NCBI GenBank assembly: GCA_000934665.2
Contig: KZ537974.1
Coordinates: 62,001 to 126,000 of the forward strand
Length of the DNA stretch: 64,000 bases
Direction of reading: 5' to 3'
DNA from: Catajapyx aquilonaris
Lineage: Eukaryota
Position numbers and translations under genes: made by a program
The notes under the pieces: model-generated
What the model was told of the DNA's origin: nothing
The model's input: the letters and a program-made list of their open reading frames with translations, nothing else
The model's database searches: none
Part shown: positions 1,271-58,776 of the stretch, one piece after another
Layout of the letters: every line of letters begins with the position of its first letter
How positions within the stretch are numbered: position 1 is the stretch's first letter

Positions 1271-1272
<2 letters not shown>

Positions 1273-1329
<57 letters not shown>

Positions 1330-1332
1330 TTT
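1273..1332. repeat. (ATTT)15 microsatellite
   Basis: Fifteen perfect ATTT units read directly from the sequence. Confidence 0.98.
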
Positions 1333-7300: not shown

Positions 7301-7584
7301 GAAATTTTGGGCTTGTAAAAGTAAAGACCGTTTGTATATCAACTAGAATTATTAATCGTTCGAGTTGATGCAACCGGTTTCAAGCCAAAATTTAAGGGAA
7401 GATCTCTGATTATGTCTAGGAATTCGCGGGATTTTCTCATAATTTGCGTACATACAATCGGTCCTAATAAGGCAATGCGGAATATTGTTCACGTTACAAA
7501 TATGCATTGCGGACATTCCCAGAGATGCCGTACTCTGAATGCGTCATTAACGTCCTGTTTATGAATGCACCAAACTTTAACTTG

Positions 7585-7617
7585 TGACTAATAATCATGT
7601 CTTCTTTACAGGTAAGT
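7585..7617 (+). promoter_or_regulatory. Candidate recursive splice site (ratchet point, zero-length exon): juxtaposed 3' and 5' splice sites
   Basis: Sequence tgaCTAAT-aatcatg-tcttcttta-CAG|GTAAGT. Branch-point match at 7588-7592, pyrimidine tract 7600-7607, AG at 7610-7611, perfect donor at 7612-7617. No AG occurs in 7525-7609. It is on the same strand as the CadN exon. Confidence 0.7.
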
Positions 7618-7661
7618 GTCGTTCACCTCACGAGAGTTCTTCCTGCAGTGTCTGCGCAAAG
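7612..7661 (+). other. Candidate 50-nt cryptic ratchet-point exon
   Basis: Runs from the ratchet AG to a second donor AAG|GTAGGC at 7662-7667. Its length is not a multiple of 3. Confidence 0.5.
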
Positions 7662-10308
7662 GTAGGCTTGTGTTTGAGTTATTATGTGTGAGCGTGTATT
7701 TGCAAGGAGAAGTGGATTTGTACCTATCAAAATATATTTTCATCCTCTGCACCTTATCTCATCTCCCTTATTCTAAACTCGCCGTTCCCACCCTCCGGAA
7801 TATCAAGTTATTCAAATCGATCCGAGAAGAGTGCAAGGGAAGGTTGACACAAAACGTCATCTTAACGGCTCGATAATTCTCACATTGATTGCCCCCTTTG
7901 GGAGCCTAGTAATGGATTTTATAACCGATCGGATTATGGAGAATATATTGGGAGCAAGCTTCTCAGAATTTTATTCCCTCACCGCGCGGGGGCACGCTAA
8001 TCGACGAATGTGACACTAGACCTAATGTGCGGGGTTTTGGGAGGCTCTATATTTGTAGATGGAGAGAAATTGAGGATCTACTCACCTTGGGGCTGCTTTT
8101 CCTCTTGGGGCTTCAGATGCACTTAGGTTACCTGTTTACATACTTGCAAGCACGCTATGGTGTAATTTTTAATGTTCATACCTATAGACAGGAGTTATGG
8201 CTATTAGTTGCGCCTGTGCTAACACCAGCCTGTCCACAGTCTCAGAAGTTAGATCAAAGGGTCTCAGGGCAAGTATTTCGACTCTTATCCGTGCTTCTTC
8301 CTCCATTCCTTTTCACCTTTCCCGACCAACTCTTTCCACTTGACGCTGCTCTCAAAAGTTGCTCAGACTTTGCCAGCGGAAGCTGAATCATCCACTTCCC
8401 CATTCCTATTGCTCCAGACTTTCCTGCTGCAGATAAATCCATGTTTCGTAGTGCGTCTAGGGAGGTGTGCTGCAGGGCTCTATGACCTCCAGCAGCCGGG
8501 ATTTTCCTAGGAGAAAAGCGCACAATTCGCAACTTGAAACACGCTCGCACATATTCGTACAGTATATCACATGGAAAACCGGCTGGACTACCCCTGAAAA
8601 CTTTTGAGGCACTTTGTGGTATCAGCTTAATCCTAACCGCAGATCGTTTGGCGCGGTTTATTCGGTCTTATGAACTCGCGACCCTTAATCCCGACCATGA
8701 ATCAAGGGAATGACTTTCTCCATCAACATGTAATATTGCTCCCAAACTTCATTTCCACATTAAGGGTCGGGCATTAAGCCGGACCATTTGAGACACGGGG
8801 TGTGTATATAGTCGCAGGGCATCACCCCGTACCCCCAGAAATATTGAATTCAAGTGGGGCAGTTAAAATCTGCGGGATACGAGCTCTAGGGTTTGCTGGG
8901 ACGTGGCGGTTCTTCTGGAGCGGGAATTAATTTTGACAATTCCGGGCGACAATTCGGGCGACGGCCAACTTTATTCGATTGTGGAACTTTCCCCCTAGAG
9001 TTGTAGTGACATGTTGACGAACTGCTTGGGTGAATCAACTCCCGAACTCGGGGGTCCATTTTTGCGATTTTTATTATCCTGGATCATACTGTATAGACAG
9101 AGTATATCACAGCTTTTCTGCAGATCAGGTGAATGGACAGTGTTTCGAATATTTTTTCGTCGCAGCGTGTTTGCAGTACATGAGAACATGCTACTGTCCA
9201 CGGTATGCGTATGCAAAATCCTCGTATGTTTTATATATAGGGTCAAGCTAGACAGCCCGTTTTTCGCGTATGGCTACGGATTTTTCCACGATCATTACAA
9301 TGTAAATGAATCGGAACCGCTTGGAACAGGCCGAGTGGATTAAAATGGAAAGGTATGCAGGCATAGGAGGAAGTTGCAGGTTTGCTGGAGCCCTGCTCTG
9401 AAAAAGCCCTAGGCCCCGCGTTTCGGCCAATCCCAAAATTCGCTACATTATCGAGGAAATTTCCGCTCGAATGGCATTCGACATGGGATCAGCTATGGAA
9501 TGGAAGGTAAAAAAAAAAAAATTGCAGAGTTTCCGCTGCACATATCCGAATATCCTCGAATATACAGGAGGACCATCTCCACATACACGCATATGATCGC
9601 GCAGGGGGACGCAGGGGCACACATGCTTCTGACGTGGCGGATGGCAGTGTGCGTTGTTCCCCGCAAATATCCGGGTAAATAATCCGGGGGAGCGGCCAAC
9701 CGGTTCCAAAATCAACTCTGCCATTTTTTGAGTAAACCGAGCTGTCAGCAGCCTCATGTTGTGACGATAAACATGGCGCCGCCATTCTGCACTCATGATA
9801 TCGTGGTCCCCTCAAATTACGTTGCTGCTCACTCAGATGTACTTTGGCGGATAAGCACCCACCAGATTTTTTACCACCCACTTTTTACGTCGCCTTTCAC
9901 CCATTCTAGGGGGGGGGGGGGGGGCAATTGGCTGCGGTTTGGGATGTAATTTCTCAGCCGGATAACAAAATATGTCGCATAAATTGCGTTAATTTGAGGG
10001 GTAACTTATGATAATGGAGTGTGTTTTTTTGATAGGCTATTATATGACCTGCATTATATTTTTAAGGGTGTATCGTTGCGTGGCGGTCATGCGTTAATCA
10101 GCTATTGTTAGGAACATGTACTTAGTGCGACTTTGTTGTAGCTACAAAGCTTTCTGATTATGAATGCGTCCAAACAAGAGCTGGTTGTACCTGCGCACGT
10201 ACTGAAGCTTGTGGTCGTGTGATTAACATGAGTGTATTTTTATAATGAGACTGCTATAGGAAGTCTATTGTGGAACTATAGGGTTGCAGTGAATTTTTTA
10301 CAATGTAC

Positions 10309-42700: not shown

Positions 42701-44184
42701 AAATGGTTTGGAAACTACTACCCCGTGTACATAACACCTAGTAATACACACTGCCATTAGCGTCGCTCGCCGGAATATAACACATCAAGATTTACATGCT
42801 TGCGCGATTGTACATGAACCAGAAAATTACACGTGACGTCATCCATTCAGGCAGTAAAATTGGGTATTTTAGGCGCAATTTACTCGCGAAAAAATATATA
42901 TCAAGTTGGTCCAAATTTGACGAGCCATGGTTGGATGAAATGAAGCGGGAGCCAGATTCTATTCCAAGTCTTTCAGACTTTTTTTTTTTTCAAAAAAAAA
43001 GAAGAAGAAGAGATAGAAGTCTCGTCGTTTATCAGCCGGAATAAGTAGGTTTAGTGGCACAGAGTTTGAGCCGTTTCGGCGCTTGAGTCGTGAATGACAT
43101 TTCCTCCCAATTTATCATGGGGACGATTGCCGTGTGGAAATCGATAATCATTAGGTAGGTGGGACGCTGGGTAGATATCGAGTGATGGGTGGGGCGGCCC
43201 CGGGGCGGATAATGTTGTGGGGGGCATGCCGTGAGATGGGAGAGAAGCGACCGTAATTGGCAGGGCATCGACCCTATATCCTCTACCCCACTCTTTGTTT
43301 CACCCCTGCCGCTGTTATTAAGCTGGGAGAGAGACAGAAGAGATGCATCGATTAGTGCTTGTTCCTGTCGAAACGGGAGATAAGTGACTCTTCAAATCCT
43401 ATATGGGGAAAAGCAGGGGCCGTCCTTCAGGTTCAAGTAGAATTTTGTTAGCATGTACAGTACAAGGATCAAAAGGACTGTGTGTGCATGGAAGGAGCGG
43501 TTGCGTGTCAGGCACAAAGCTGATAGTTGGGGGTCCAACAGTCAGTGGACAGTAGATAACGAGGGTATTCTGACTATCTGACAGGTTTTTGTCATGTCTG
43601 AAATCCAGGGTTAATTCGCACCGTTTAAGTGTGGTTGCAAAAGCATTTTACGGCATGTAAAAGTTTCATGTGGTTTGCCGGAATTTTTGTAGTGTAATGT
43701 ATGCCTGTGTACTGTGGTAACTTACAGATTTTTGTAATGAGGTGTGTGAGGAGGTTCCGTTTTAGATGTTAAACTGTAGGCGACAGAAATGTGCATGTTC
43801 ACGTCGCTTTTCATGAAAAAAATTATGTACGCTTTATTTGGTGCGGCATATGTTTACACAGCTCGATACTACACGCCTTGCTCGGGACATAAAAGGCAAT
43901 TTAAAAATTATGAAATCCAATTTTGACTAACCGTTTCAAAACTGTCTAACATTCAACAACACTCCCGCCTGATGTTAAAACAACATAGACGCAGCTCTTG
44001 GTCGATATGCAGTTACCACCCGGACAGACCGAGTAAGGGTCACATTTAGCAGTCAGTATAACTTTGAAATGACCCAAATAAGCAATTTGGAAATAAATTT
44101 GGGTGGGCAGCCCCTGGTAGAGTTTGGGCCGAGGAGAAAGCGGCATATATCGACGCGCATTGGCCTGGTCCCGAGCTGGTGCCT

Positions 44185-44220
44185 GCGTCGGAGGCGTCGG
44201 AGGCGTCGGCGGGCGCCGGG
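44185..44220. repeat. 9-bp GC-rich tandem repeat (GCGTCGGAG, about 3-4 units) in a small CpG-rich patch
   Basis: gcgtcggag gcgtcggag gcgtcggcg ggcgccggg. Confidence 0.85.
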
Positions 44221-47200
44221 GAGGGAAGCAGTCGAGCCAAGGGCCGCCTCCGATTCAGATCCGATCCTCCACTGCTCGGATACACATCCTGTACCACCCA
44301 CTATAAGACCATGAGTGTCACTCTTCAGGGTGCGTGTGCGCGTGTTGATTCCAGTGCGTGATTTTTTGGCGGCTTCTTGATTTTTGGGGGATAAGGGTGG
44401 GTCGTTTTTTTAGGTGGCTCTGGCCAGTGATGTGACGTGTGTATCATTCCTAAGTGACGGGAATGGTTGATCCCCTCAAAGTTTTCTGGGTGTTAACCAA
44501 CAGCACCTACTTAGGTGAGTTATAACCTGTTATTAATGGTGGTTATCAAGATACGGGAAGGGAGCATCATTTTGGTGGGGTGAATAATTCATTATCCTGC
44601 CTGCGTTCTCCATTTGAGCCATTAGGAGTAGAATTTTCCCCTGTTAATAATATATGATAGGGAATTTATGATTTGGAGCGGAAGTCGAAATATCAGCGCT
44701 GGACAGGGCGGTGCAGAGGAAAAAAAAGGCCAAATTCCCATGACCCCCTTTTTGGGTTTTTGCACATTTCCAATTCCATCACCCTTCCCGCACATTACCA
44801 GCAAACGGTTTCCATGCCCGGTTATTATTCATCATCCCAACTGCATGGGCCAAGTGTTCCGCCAGAGGCCATTGTTATTGGTTCCTGGGAGAGCCTGTTG
44901 TACCCTGCACCAGGGAATCGGATGGTGACTGCGAATTTCATAACTTATATTCTGAATATTTGAAATTCTACCTAGCTGATTTGAGTAATAGCCAAGTTGG
45001 ACTTTTTGAACCGCCCTGTCCACTATGCAAACACTGTACAGTTGGAGTGTACAGTCCGCCTTTGACCTAGGCATGTATGCTTTGAGCCGCCCCTCGTTTG
45101 ACACACACATGACCCTTATTCATCCTTCCTTTTCCGAGTGTGCCCAGCTATTGAACAAGTCGCGTCCTTTTGTTCCTCCACTTTGAATCGGAGCAGACGA
45201 CACCGTGTGCTCCAACTCTCTCCAAAAAGCTAGACAATCTGCAGCTAGAAAATTGCCAATTAATTTCGGACCAAATGTTGGAAATGGAATTAAAAGAAAT
45301 GTTGCGGTAGGTCTGACAGCCCCCTCCCTTCTTTCCTGTAGGCCCTTTTGTACGTGACCTGAGGAAATGCTGGTGGGATGGTGCAGGAAGATTGATCACC
45401 TGAGCCTTTTGTTTCCTAATCGGCACATTGCTGGCGTGATGATTAATCCTGAAATATATTTTTTTGTGACGTTTAACAGGCCAACTTCATTTGCAGACGG
45501 AATGAAGGTTCAGGCCCGAAGTTTTTTTTTGTTGGATTGCCACTAAATAGTGGGTCGATTTGTGTTGTGGCTGCGTGATTGTGTATGATTTAGGGCCTTC
45601 TGGTTTGATTGCGCAGGGATTAGAGCTCAGGGCAACATTCACTGTTGGGATTATCCAGGACCTCCGTCCCATGTGTTGTTCAGATTATGTTCTGTGCCCG
45701 CAGTTAGTCTGGCAACAAAAGAGTTGCATTTATCGCCAATAACACTCCCGTTGCCTTTTGTGCCCGGGAAAAGGTTTACGCGAATGCTATACGGTGGCTT
45801 AAAGTATTGGCCCGTTGTTTTTAGCAAGAACAGCCCTTTTATTTGTGAAGAGTGTTTGCGAAATAAAGCGAAATTGTGTCAGTATAGTTGAGGATATTTT
45901 GTGAATCCAGCTTAGCTTTTTTTACCACTTTACCTGATATCTTTGTGCAGGGATACTGCTTTGTTTTCTCAGGTTTTCAGTAACAGATTTTTGTTTTTTT
46001 TTTGGACTGCCCGGTGGTAATTTCATTTGTACACAATATTCCAATATTTTAACCTGCACATGAGCCGCATCGATTTTCAATCGCGCTACGCATTTTAGCT
46101 ATCTGAGACACAATGTGTGTTCTGAAAGCAACAGTAGTGCTGAACCCGAATGGAGAGTTCCTTCTGGCGCTGCGATTTTAATTGCCCTGACATCATAACT
46201 GGGTCGGCCCAGAATTCTCAATTAGGCTGCACAAAACACCTCAGGTTTTCCAGCAGTATGCAAATAACAGGCCTCCTGTATAAAGAAAAAGTTTGGTCAC
46301 GGTTGCTATTCACAGCCTTTTGTGTTTTTCACTCTTTCAAGCGTGCCCGGAGAGCTCTTTTTTGTGTGTAAAACTTACAACCGGTTATTGTTGAACAAGG
46401 TTGGACACGCCTGGCCGCATTCTATTATTTACCGCATATAATTTGGTAGCCAGAAAATAGTGCAAAATAGTGAGTTGAAGTCTGAACACGTCGTAACTCC
46501 CAGAGTCCGCCTCATTTGGGACTTTGACGTCCGTCAGATTGCAACTTAGGAGTTAGTGGCCAGGGAGCCTCAAGTTGGGCGGAGGCCCTAATTTGTTGAC
46601 GTGTGCTGGGGCAAGTTAGGGGGGGGGGGGGGTGGCGGNTAGTCGGAAGCTAGTTAGTTGCTCGGCTGAGCCAACCATCACTCGAGATGGCTTACATCTG
46701 GAATGCACTTGGCCGGACACAAATCCTCTTCCGCTGCTGGAGCCTGGCTGGAGGAAAGCACAATAGCGCAGCGGTCTGGAAACGGGCAAGATGCTGCGGC
46801 AGCAGGGGAAAATACAAATTCCTGGCCAGGTGCAATCAATGGGCTTGCTTGCCGCCGTCTATTTGTTGTGGCTCCGGGGGAATTCCGGGTGGGACAATTG
46901 GCGCGTCGGGTTTTTGTGGCCAACAATAGCTTGAAATGTAATTGGGTAGGACGGAAGGGAGGTTGGCCTAATAATTGTGTACATGTACAGTCAGTGAAAA
47001 TATCATGTTTGGGGAAATCCAGCTGATGAAACCCGCACTCTTTTCAATGTGACGTGTCTAGGTAGATAAGCCCCGTTTCGTGGAATTACAGATTTGAGTT
47101 GACTTTTGGTTGCGGGATGTGAGACATTGTCTGATGTAATCTGAAATGTTTTCCACTTATCCTGTCGCATTAGTGGGGCGTGTGATCAACGACCTGCATT

Positions 47201-53200: not shown

Positions 53201-56200
53201 AGCCATTCCATGAAACAAATATTTTGGTGTGTTGGTCTGCATTTGCGCAGTGGACACAATACTATAGGAGCCCTGTTAACATGAATTATTCGTGACATGC
53301 GAATTGAATGTACGTAAACCATAACCTAATATTGCATCCTACGCGAGTAAAAATTCAAAAGTAGTACCAAAGCTCTATCCTGTTTCATTATAAATTTAGT
53401 CTCAAATGTATCAAAACAGTGCAAACAAAAGGATATTGCACGTTTTATATTTAATTGCGGTGTGAATTTGCGCTGTACGGTTGAAATAACAGTAAATTGA
53501 AGCTGATGACGCAGGTTGGTGTGCCTTTTGCTAATTTCAATAATGCAACATCTTTCTTTGTATACATAACAAGCATTTTCGGTAATTCAGCATCATAAAA
53601 TAAACCAAACCATATCACCACATTACCCCTCGCTTTTCATATATTCGCTAATTTCTTGCTTAGTTTTATCGGCTTTTTAACAGCAGGTATGACAAATGCG
53701 TGTCCGAAACACGGTGTTTGCAATGTGGAACTTTTAGAGCGTTCATTTGTGCTGTCACTGTACGGATACCAAAGCAGCGAGTAGGCGTGATGTAAAAAGG
53801 GATTGTTTGATGTGTGTTGTATTTCTTTGCTGCTGATAGCAACACAAGCTCCCTGTTAACATGACTGTGTGTCTGGCGCAACATTATGAGTGACATGCAT
53901 TTTAACGTCTCTTACTAACCCCTATTTTTTCATGCAATTACATGTGAACTGAATGAAGTTTGCCTCCGGTACTCTCGCTGAGTAATATTCATCACCGACC
54001 TTTTTTTCCACTCACCAAACTGGAGAGGGTCCGATTGAATTTTGCTCCGGAAATTCCGTTCAGGAATAATATTTGTATTTCTGATTAGTCAGCTACGAAA
54101 AGCGTTCCTGACATTGCTTACCTGCCACTGGCCACCGAATGTGAGTGGAATTGATTGCAAGCTTTACCGATCGTCTCCTCAGGTACATTTTGACCCGGTT
54201 TCTTTGATGCTATCTGGGACATACCAGATTTTTTCCCTCCCTCCAAAGCTTTGCGGCGCCGAATGAAAAATTGCACCATTTGTGGCGTTGGTTTCCTCAC
54301 GGAGCGTCTCATTTTTTATCAAGACCACCTGTGAGATTGAAAGTCTTCAACTTGGACATTTGTCACTGATAGCCATCTAAGACTGACCGCATGTATTTTT
54401 GCGGTTTGCACAAATTTGTCGTAGAAGTTAGTTAGGCTGGGCAGAGTAGTTATATCTCAGGTTTTTGCTCCATGTTCAGTCCCCAATTTCGTTTTGGATC
54501 GAAACGTGAAACTTTTTCCATTAGCTTTCAGGAGCGAGGCTTTCAGACTCGACAGAAACCGGAACTTTTCTCCTTACCCATTTGTCATTATTCGGCATGG
54601 ATGAGGAGCATAGCAATGTCGCTTGAAGCAAGTGTTGCACTTCAGGTCACATGCAGGACGTTTCTCAGCTAGACCGGCAAACTTCTAGAATTGATTTTTG
54701 GACACTATGTGACTATGTAATGATAGTCGACGATAGTATCATAAATTTGACAATTTCAACTCAAATAGTGCATTTTTTATACTCAACCTAAACCATTTTT
54801 GGGAGAAGATATGTGGACAATATGGATCCTACTTGTATTACAGTGCACCCCCAAGTGACAAAATTAGTGCAGAAATTGCACCTATTACACTATAGTAACG
54901 AGTCGGGTCTATAACAACGACAGCACAAAATGACCAGAAATTTGTGGCATTTTGAAGCACCCTGTGACAGGCAGTTGGGTACGTGGCCCAGCAGGAAAAA
55001 GCAGTGTGCCGCTGTTCAAAATTTGATTAGTTGTATGATGCTGCGGTATGGACCTGTCCTATGCACTTTTACTCACATGGCGGCAATGTCCCGGTCGATA
55101 CCCGTACCCGAGTTTAGAGCCATGTACCACCGTGGTCCCCCTGTTTGTAAACTAGTTGCGTTACTAGCCTGCCCCCTTTTCTCTCACGTCGGCTGCGGAA
55201 ATAGGGTATTTATGTCGCAACTGTGGTGTGCAAGTCCTCTGCAACACTATCGATCATGGCAACTTTGCCTACCCCACCCTTTTTGTTGGTGGCTGCACAC
55301 CGGCTGAAAGGCTGGGATTTGGGTGCAGAGCACAAGTGTCCGGGTTCCCACTGCTAAATCCCTAGGCTTCCATATCGATACTCTCGTCCGCCCCCTTTTT
55401 TTTCATCTCGTAGATACCTACTTGGCAAAAAAAATAAAAATTCGCGTGGATGTGAGAAGGGCGGCAAAAATGGCATGTAATTACAGGGTGGACACTTTGC
55501 ACTTGATATGCGAGACATTCTCTCTAGGAAAAATTACGTGCTTCTGCTTTTCTGGTCATGAGAAAAAGGTCGGGTTCGTGACCAGGGTGGGTAATCAGCA
55601 GGGTTGTTTTTCGAGTCTATTTTTATGGGGTGTTAATGAAGTCTGAAGGGGCTTATTAAGGATATGCGACAGGTGAAGTGTCCTTTTATTGACTCGAGTA
55701 CAGTGAGGTCAATTTACTATTGGCTATAGCTCGGTTGTACACACTGGAGCTCCCGGCCTATCCTTATGGGTTAATTCTCCACGTATCGTTATTGGAATCA
55801 AGTGTTCCAAGAAAGAAGCAGAGGACAATAAAAGCCGAGTTTTTACGACCATTCGGGCGCAGGTGGGCACTTGCTCCCAACTTTTGCAATAAGGAGCAAA
55901 GTTGGACACACTTCCTTTTTAAAGAAGCGAGCATATCCGCCTGTTTTTTGAAACTTTGTTTCCAATTTAGTAGCAACAACGCCGGAATTAGACACTTTCG
56001 AAGGGCCTTTTACCCAGCAGCCTTCCAAGATGTTGAAAGATCCCCACTTTATGAAGCCTCTCATTTTTCGCCTATCCCTGAGGGGGCCTCATAGGTGATT
56101 TATGAGTGTTGAGGCGTGTAAGTGGAGGAGAAGGCATTTGGAGGAGGATCCCTGGCGGGGCAGGAAATGAGGCGACGGGACAATGATGGACGCCACATTT

Positions 56201-56622: not shown

Positions 56623-57400
56623 AACGAACTATTTATTTCCTCCCCATTTTTTTGCGGAAGGGTTGAAATCAGGTTGATCCCACTTGACGGGTTGGCATTC
56701 CTTTTGTCGTCATCCCGGGAGGGCTCCCATCATTACTGATGCAGATCCAAAGGATTTGAGATATTTAGCAGTCGGCACATTTTGGCAGATTAGTAGCTTC
56801 AGGTGAGAGGGGATTTACAGATGTTAAGCCTAGGGAGGACATGATGTGACCTTTCGTTTCTGCGACTGCAGATTCGGTGCAATACGTTGCAAAGTAATCA
56901 TGGTCGGAAGCAATCTCGTCCAGGCTGAAGGTAAGCCCGGCGCTTGGGGCTGGCATAAAGTGGACTTATCCGCAATATTACTGCTGGGGTTAGTAGGTTT
57001 GGGTTTTCAGTGGGGGTGGGGAACGTTTTCTGTACCTGCTCACAATGAGGATACATTTGAATGGGTTTGTTGGCACCAATTTTCCGGCCGTTTTGCTCCT
57101 GGAGATTAGCTCTCGTTTTTTTTCGGGTGTACGCTGAGGGCATGGTAATGGCCCTGCTGGTTGTGTATAGGGTGAGGGGGTTGGGTGTATAACCTACACG
57201 TGCCCCGGATATTTTGCGCCTCTTTTCCGGCTCGTTACAGTTAGACCCCAGCAACCCACCGCTCCCTGACGCGGTTTTTGTTGCAACCAACCTACCCAAA
57301 GTGCGCTTCTAAACGACCGTTGCATGTCGAGGAATTTGTTGCGAATATGCCCGCATGTCCCTGTCACCAAACGTAATATGCATTTTTCTACTACTTTCAG

Positions 57401-57544
57401 TGACCAAGTTCATCCGCATCGGAATCGCCGACAAGAATGACAACCCGCCATACTTCGACAAGGCGCTGTACGAGGCTGAGGTTGACGAGAACGAAGACAT
57501 CCAGCACACCGTCCTCACCGTCACTGCCAAAGATCACGACGAAT
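57401..57544 (+). CDS. CadN: Internal coding exon of neural cadherin (DN-cadherin / type III classical cadherin), spanning an EC-repeat junction; probable orthologue of Drosophila CadN alternative exon 13
   Basis: Acceptor catttttctactactttcAG ends at 57400 and donor GTAAGT starts at 57545. The exon is 144 nt with phase 1 on both sides. Translation (G)TG-TKFIRIGIADKNDNPPYFDKALYEAEVDENEDIQHTVLTVTAKDHDE-T contains the cadherin Ca2+-binding motifs DxNDNxP, xDE and AxDxD. Third codon positions are strongly C/G-rich compared with the flanks. It is nearly identical to the DN-cadherin segment as I recall it. Confidence 0.95.
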
Positions 57545-58776
57545 GTAAGTACCTTGCTTTCACCCTCCTTGGGCACGTTTTGGGTGTGCTGTACACGGTT
57601 TGGGCTGCAAGCTGCAAATTGCATTTCTGCTCCCGAATACACATCCGCTCGCTCGATGGGGCCAGAAATTGCCGTCAGGATAGCTTGTTGCCTCCGATGA
57701 TGATGTCAACACGAGTGCCGCCTTCTCCGGGAGAGTGTCCTCTCCCCCATATTGAATTAAGGCGTCCTTCGAAGGGGAAGAGTGCCCTCTTTAGGCCATA
57801 AACCCAACTTGTGCCCGCGTATATTTTTGAGAGGTTGCAGGATGGGCTGGAAATGAGCAGAAAAATATGTTGCAGTATGATACGACCACATTGCCAAGGT
57901 AAGTAAAATTGGTTGTTTTTAAATGAATGGAGCGGCAAAGTCCGGTTTCCTATTCAGCTGATGCGGAGAGACATTTGGCGCCGACTTTACCACAGGAATT
58001 GCAACTCGGCGGGGGTCGGGAAGGCACAAAAAAAAAACATAATGCATGCATAGCGGGGATAATACAGACATTTGGTGGATATATAGGAATGGCGGTGGTG
58101 GTGACAGCTGGGAGTGAATTCCGCGGCCAAACACTCCCGATTATTAATCAATGCGGCCGTTCCGATTGTTTGCGCGATCGGGTGTGGAGAGGCTTGAAAT
58201 GAGGTGGGGAAAATGCGGGACATCTGCCGAGCCCCCATGTTTTTAGCCCGGGCCACGAACCTTCGCTCATGGACGTTAATTACCAAGGGAATGACGGCCA
58301 ATTTCCCTCCCTCCCTATATGGAAAGAGAGGATTCCAACGACGCTTTTCTGGAAGCAAGTTTTGTCGGGCCTCGGGCCAGCCCTTGTTGGTAGTCGTGTC
58401 TGAAGCAGTTGCAGGAGCTCGTGTAGGATTTATCAAAGGCACCCCCTGGCAACATCCATCCCTGCTGATGCTGCTGCGCGCCCCAGGCAAGGAAAAGCCT
58501 ACGCAGTAAGCCCGTTTGGCCGACTTATCCACCTCTATGGAGTGGCAGCTGCTGAGGCTTTATTGCACCTATGCACTTGAGAGAGCGCACCAGAGCGAAA
58601 ACGCCCCTCAAGTTTGCCAAGACACCGAGTTAGAGTGGGGTAGGGATGCATGAAGGCACACCCTGACGCTCATTTCAGGCCGCGGTTGCACGCTGTAATT
58701 GAAATCGGAACTTGGTAGCCAATGGGGTGAGAGGTGATCACGTGGTTCGATGCGCTAGTCTAATTGGCTGGAATTG

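Follow-up and report, generated by a model that had tools for sequence, protein, structure and literature searches.

Nucleotides 7612–7661 of the window, by which we mean the whole 64,000-nt stretch of DNA analysed here, are probably an ordinary cryptic RS-exon at an intronic ratchet point, which would be recognised and then discarded within the very long intron that belongs to the long isoform of N-cadherin. The features on which this reading draws are as follows.

7580..7611, plus strand: ratchet-point acceptor, made up of a pyrimidine tract, a CAG that ends at 7611 and, some 21 nt before it, CTAAT
7612..7617, plus strand: ratchet-point donor GTAAGT, proposed to be regenerated after the first splicing step
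7612..7661, plus strand: candidate cryptic RS-exon of 50 nt, frameshifting (3n+2), with the incoming frame open for 17 codons
7649..7661, plus strand: proposed 13-nt micro-exon with its acceptor at 7648, judged a chance feature
7662..7667, plus strand: RS-exon donor AAG-GTAGGC, of middling strength, the best GT in 7613–7900
44011..44514, plus strand: putative alternative first exon of short N-cadherin, with the ATG at 44463, 17 codons plus one base, and a phase-1 donor at 44515
57401..57544, plus strand: coding exon of N-cadherin (CadN, type III classical cadherin), with a phase-1 acceptor and a donor at 57545; TGA opens its +2 frame

On the plus strand of the window an AG ends at 7611 and GTAAGT starts at 7612. 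The interval 7612–7661 is exactly 50 nt long, has AAG as its last bases and is followed by GTAGGC from 7662. The coordinates 7611, 7612 and 7662, and with them the claim of the preliminary description that a second donor lies 50 nt past the ratchet AG, were verified in the sequence. Between positions -40 and -3 of the acceptor there is no other AG, and the CTAAT upstream of 7611 is a branch-point-like element.

Our proposed sequence of events is as follows. Acceptor 7611 and donor 7662, whose layout is observed, would define the 50-nt exon by the kind of recognition known from Drosophila. The upstream coding exon would be spliced to 7612, regenerating a donor of the form N-N-G-GTAAGT. Given the scores reported below, this donor is predicted to beat the one at 7662, so that the 50 nt would leave with the next ~49.8 kb, and the upstream exon would then join 57401 in frame. 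Rare mis-inclusion would introduce a premature stop and create a likely NMD substrate, an outcome that would remove errors and regulate nothing. A short isoform, transcribed from a putative internal promoter near 44.0–44.2 kb, would never meet the ratchet site.

The host gene is identified by the exon at 57401–57544: over 48 residues its product shares 96–100% identity with many neural-cadherins of insects, and it also matches cadherin repeats of known structure. Pfam gave no match for the 48-residue exon alone, and the identity comes from the protein and structure comparisons. No exon of the long isoform upstream of this one turned up in the window in a tblastn search with stored proteins of more than 140 residues; the intron therefore starts before base 1. 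Rfam gave 0 matches in the window. On the plus strand T exceeds A on both sides of the ratchet site (z -5.7 and -4.5) and G exceeds C downstream of it (z 10.4), skews that fit one long plus-strand transcript running across the site. The segment from 7612 to 57401 measures ~49.8 kb, inside the 2.6–63.6 kb range given for fly recursive segments in the covered part of the preprint by Duff et al. (10.1101/006163).

The phase of the intron was assessed in 25 of 39 homologous loci, the other 14 (L026–L039) being left out as partial or distant. In L020, L021 and L022 the last complete codons of the upstream exon encode Asn-Ser, and a single G stands between them and the GT; in 9 of the 25 loci the junction is uninterrupted and in the same phase. 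The homologues thus bear out the phase 1 proposed earlier for an intron whose upstream exon is not readable from the window. At this position the intron is absent from six homologues that keep the neighbouring introns (L014–L016, L018, L019 and L024) and is only ~60–70 nt long in L020–L022, so its giant size is lineage-specific. The covered part of Sasaki (2017; PMC5473995) describes the position of the largest intron as conserved among arthropod type III cadherin genes; that intron may be the present one.

The splice sites were scored with weight matrices for which 56 donors and 61 acceptors, all distinct, were taken from other arthropods and for the most part from short introns. They derive from 74 introns called in the fetched arthropod loci, at least one of these calls being doubtful. 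With 18.5 bits the ratchet site ranks first among 221 plus-strand AG-GT sites and exceeds all 177 on the minus strand, and it juxtaposes a strong acceptor and a strong donor in the form YAG-GTRAG. It is also the sole perfect match in the window to an IUPAC pattern of the ratchet consensus; with one mismatch allowed the pattern is found 2 times, which is not significant, as 18 of 100 shuffles reach 2. When the intron was simulated 100 times with a third-order Markov model, a single run attained 18.5 bits (the maxima averaged 14.2, sd 1.8), the threshold having been fixed only after the site had been seen. The second-best AG-GT site (CAG-GTATGA at 53686/53687, plus strand) scores 14.6 bits and lies 3.7 kb before the exon. 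It was considered as a further ratchet point between 7612 and 57401 and rejected, its score falling inside the null maximum.

The 7611 acceptor scores 10.0 bits, the 61st percentile of the 61 real arthropod acceptors, and 22 plus-strand acceptors in 1–57399 match it, 7611 itself counted. At 7.8 bits, the donor at 7662 stands at the 45th percentile of the 56 real donors; it has two mismatches to the consensus. A donor this good occurs after a random intron position in 1.1% of cases at 40–60 nt, 2.1% at 40–80 nt and 3.7% at 30–100 nt.

These figures bear on two other accounts of the site. In the first, the cassette as a whole arose by chance and plays no part in removal of the intron. The many acceptors as good as 7611 and the threshold chosen after the fact speak for this account, but the joint acceptor and donor score recurs in only 1 of 100 simulations, the site lies on the right strand, and a second donor follows at the expected distance. 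We consider it unlikely. In the second, a genuine ratchet point merely happens to have a GT at 7662, and some other downstream element, or none, defines the site. The two mismatches and merely median strength of the 7662 donor would suit this, as would the zero-nucleotide sites without an exon that exist according to the covered part of Duff et al. (10.1101/006163). Against it, 7662 is the best GT in 7613–7900, gives an exon of typical fly RS-exon length and would be met by chance only 1–4% of the time, which makes this second account very unlikely. The preferred reading, in which a ratchet point is paired with a cryptic RS-exon and the donor of that exon normally loses the competition, had already been put forward in the preliminary description, and it is supported by the 18.5-bit score, by the 1.1–3.7% chance of the donor at +50 and by the layout known from flies. 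A blastn search with 7401–7900 found no match in the 39 loci, which extend no further than 10 kb upstream of that exon, whereas the site lies 50 kb upstream.

Comparison with flies gives the reading its main context. According to the covered sections of Joseph, Scala, Kondo and Lai (2021; PMC8605326), more than 500 fly ratchet points each carry a cryptic exon of ~50 nt that shows poor conservation and is usually out of frame, and these exons are skipped since the ratchet donor wins. Weakening the ratchet donor leads to inclusion and, in coding introns, to loss-of-function alleles (PMC8605326). The present site resembles these Drosophila cases, among them kuz RP1 and RP2, Bx, Ubx-RP (53 nt) and chinmo (56 nt), the 53- and 56-nt exons being out of frame: it has a tandem acceptor and donor in a long intron, a ~50-nt exon, a downstream donor that is probably the weaker one and a length that is out of frame in coding sequence. 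The Ubx m1 and m2 expressed RS-exons (51 nt each) are of similar length and likewise have a ratchet donor at the exon start, but they keep the frame and are ultraconserved, whereas the present 50-nt exon shifts the frame (PMC8605326). In the first portion of the table of fly sites of Pai et al., counted by eye, 42 of 47 sites read GTRAG and 13 of 47 GTAAGT; the parts of that work covered also support exon definition at ratchet points. CadN, sought by name and by gene identifier, had no match in the supplementary fly site data of Pai (2018), which come from cultured cells, so that the blank says little.

Vertebrate RS-exons (Sibley 2015, as described in the covered parts of PMC5126111 and PMC6224609) share the competition between a regenerated and a downstream donor, with inclusion leading to a premature stop and decay. 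Poison exons with NMD (PMC8605326, covered in part; fly cases in PMC2689934) share the premature stop and the very long 3' UTR on inclusion. The present site and exon are candidates predicted from sequence, and in this they differ from the validated Drosophila sites, from vertebrate RS-exons, whose inclusion has been observed in rare isoforms, and from poison exons, which are defined by regulated inclusion; the host gene, N-cadherin, is a further difference from the validated fly sites. The known alternative splicing of CadN comprises three mutually exclusive exon pairs and a 12-nt micro-exon, 7a' (PMC2655722), and in the portion of the CadN splicing literature covered neither the ratchet site nor a short start is mentioned. 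A literature search for recursive splicing in non-fly insects gave nothing relevant. The present case would add one more candidate to the hundreds of known insect ratchet points, and it suggests that the exon-definition layout of Drosophila also applies in the giant N-cadherin intron of another insect.

Whether the exon is skipped would depend on the contest between the regenerated donor and 7662. In the intron half the ratchet donor has the maximum score of 8.5 bits, vs 4.2 bits for the RS-exon donor. The exon half has to be borrowed from homologues, as the upstream exon of this gene lies outside the window; among 12 homologues that exon ends in CAG in 4, CGG in 3 and CCG in 5. With these ends the regenerated donor scores 12.5, 10.9 and 8.8 bits, respectively, vs 7.8 bits for 7662, so the ratchet donor generally appears to outscore the RS-exon donor. 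Only ends absent from the homologues bring it below 7.8 bits, to 5.9–7.5. By predicted U1 pairing, the regenerated donor with a CCG end is slightly weaker than the RS-exon donor (-8.8 vs -9.2 kcal/mol). Since the regenerated donor scores above 7662 with the exon ends found in homologues, skipping of the RS-exon is the likely default outcome. Some inclusion, with no relation to donor scores, was seen for 4 of the 8 cryptic RS-exons placed in fly reporters (PMC8605326, in the sections covered).

A hairpin of 10 pairs is predicted at 7645–7671 (plus strand), spanning both the RS-exon donor and the internal acceptor. It was considered as a structural switch and rejected, with a z of -0.36 and 63 of 200 shuffles equally stable. 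Burial as deep as that of the RS-exon donor is found for 8, 11 and 23 of 117 donor-like sites under the three window settings used. The ratchet donor is equally buried under two of the three, and 212 of 300 shuffles of the interior leave the RS-exon donor as deeply buried.

Inclusion of the exon would end the reading frame at the junction with the next exon. The single G of the upstream exon and the 50-nt insert make up 17 sense codons, after which translation would meet the TGA at 57401–57403; the frame calculation made earlier (17 open codons, then TGA at 57401) was thus reproduced. The open stretch is not unusual, since 40% of random 50-mers that start with GTAAGT likewise have 17 open codons in this frame. 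Nor is the stop. Every insert of length 3n+2 meets the junction TGA and every insert of length 3n+1 meets a stop 12 codons later. Of the pseudo-exons in the same intron, 19/19 under strict thresholds and 44/47 under loose ones give a stop. In 19 of 25 homologues the first triplet of the downstream exon is TGA or TAA: 13 of the 16 with the intron and 6 of the 9 without (counted by eye, in loci that are related and not independent). The junction stop is best read as a reflection of Val-Thr codon choice, as it is equally common in homologues without the intron. A stop on inclusion is generic for this intron and no sign of a regulatory switch, because nearly any stray piece of the intron would cause one.

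The preliminary description had suggested that donor choice here could switch between full-length cadherin and either an NMD target or a truncated, non-membrane-anchored ectodomain. As a kind of idea the switch is not new: it is already published for vertebrate RS-exons, the binary switch to decay being the model of Sibley (via PMC5126111 and PMC6224609, covered in part). Applied to this site, it would make the 50-nt segment a regulated poison RS-exon, with tissue- or stage-dependent donor choice, in which inclusion sends the long mRNA to NMD and shifts the long-to-short isoform ratio. Several points are compatible with this. The exon frameshifts into a stop, the 7662 donor has the strength of a real site, and an upstream exon ending in CCG could make the donor contest a close one. 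Several kilobases, or ~1,690 codons (with the downstream length taken from P0013), would go untranslated after the early stop, and fly NMD targets are marked by long 3' UTRs (PMC2689934, in the part covered); in flies, exonic elements and the EJC can promote RS-exon inclusion (PMC8605326); and the vertebrate binary-switch model offers a precedent (PMC5126111). What tells against regulation is that the stop is the default (19/19 and 44/47 pseudo-exons), that it is as common at the junction without the intron (6/9) as with it (13/16), that fly cryptic RS-exons are described, in the sections of PMC8605326 covered, as always skipped and poorly conserved, and that the hairpin over the exon donor is within chance. 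We regard a regulated poison RS-exon as quite unlikely, and with the stop generic for pseudo-exons and for all 3n+2 inserts, the claim of a switch goes unsupported.

A useful truncated ectodomain fares no better. By repeat counting in Drosophila numbering, with three linkers interpolated, the junction falls in the final strand of EC9. The protein of Drosophila ananassae (P0004) has its furin site at 435, in agreement with the covered part of PMC8325961; its junction is at ~1400, shortly ahead of a linker at 1410. Inclusion would therefore give a product ending inside EC9. Fly constructs ending at EC8 or EC9 showed lower accumulation and no bead aggregation, EC1–EC10 being the minimum (PMC8325961, in the sections covered). 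A functional secreted form is unlikely to result from RS-exon inclusion.

The earlier proposal of a 13-nt micro-exon stands as far as its acceptor goes: a CAG at 7648 exists and defines 13 nt. Its use is another matter. The acceptor scores 5.8 bits (16th percentile of the 61 real acceptors) with two AGs at -16 and -14, and an acceptor as good is found in 16% of 50-nt intron windows, which is chance level. The 13-nt insert also frameshifts, into a stop at codon 13 of the shifted frame of the next exon; neither 50 nor 13 nt is the multiple of three that a frame-keeping RS-exon has. That inclusion yields a functional secreted ectodomain, or else a micro-exon isoform, could be argued from the 17 open codons of the inserted frame and from the CAG inside the exon, which has a branch-like CTCAC 19 nt ahead of it. 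Yet the frame is no more open than 40% of random GTAAGT-starting 50-mers, the secreted product would end in the last EC9 strand while EC1–EC9 is non-adhesive in fly assays (PMC8325961, covered in part), the micro-exon product frameshifts too, and splicing from 7612 to 7648 would need a 37-nt intron, the shortest of the 74 homologous introns being 53 nt. Either product is extremely improbable.

The segment between the RS-exon and the coding exon (7661–57401) is not exon-free. It contains a start exon at 44463–44514, conserved and missed in the earlier reading of the locus, whose encoded peptide is identical in 17 of 17 residues to the N-termini of RefSeq isoforms (P0013, P0015). The same or a near-identical starting peptide is found in 11 of 154 stored proteins, from lacewing, beetles, butterflies, moths, wasp and psyllid. 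We read 44463–44514 as an alternative first exon, in which case the long-isoform junction 7661–57401 assumed earlier stays valid. Two of the six correctly spaced Inr-like and DPE pairs in the window, both strands counted, lie at 44011 and 44230, a short way upstream of this exon, and we take them to mark putative transcription starts. Since this first exon lies downstream, short-isoform transcripts would bypass the ratchet point, and only the long transcript would meet it. A literature search, which took in few of the subscription papers, found none on the conserved short N-cadherin start. This deeply conserved alternative start may merit separate study.

The alternative start also defines what a regulated poison RS-exon would mean. 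With the short isoform starting downstream of the ratchet point, such an exon would shift the long-to-short ratio. A regulated choice between 7612 and 7662 would then send only the long isoform to decay, a recursive-splicing dial for two cadherin ectodomain lengths, a prospect we hold to be distinctly improbable. If true, the dial would act in the insect nervous system and leave untouched the short isoform, which starts in the last EC9 strand. Regulated inclusion would raise the importance of the site, as no regulated poison RS-exon in an insect is shown in the part of the literature covered.

Several observations accompany the alternative first exon. Three ATGs lie upstream of its start codon, and the hydrophobicity of the short N-terminus is no more than mild (1.3 as the best mean over 9 residues). 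A weak acceptor of 2.0 bits, a T-run then AG, lies at 44413/44414 (plus strand), 49 nt before the short-isoform ATG; it could yield a 101-nt internal version of the exon or a 5' UTR intron.

The strongest ordinary pseudo-exon of the intron is a 59-nt segment at 56872–56930 (plus strand; acceptor 9.1, donor 11.1 bits), which lies 470 nt before the coding exon. As a cassette it contains a stop, and an ATG inside it, at 56900, would be in frame with the next exon once spliced to it. The segment is a candidate extra start or poison exon, and no homologue among the stored proteins or loci supports it. A ratchet-like CAG-GTAAGT occurs on the plus strand at 9106 of L006 and 7245 of L008 (16.4 bits), 0.9 kb before the orthologous exon. 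It is probably a chance site: L007, although closely similar, lacks it owing to a small indel, and its score is within chance for the 56 kb scanned. Finally, a TTTA tetranucleotide microsatellite of ~15 units occupies 1271–1331 (plus strand) of the window.
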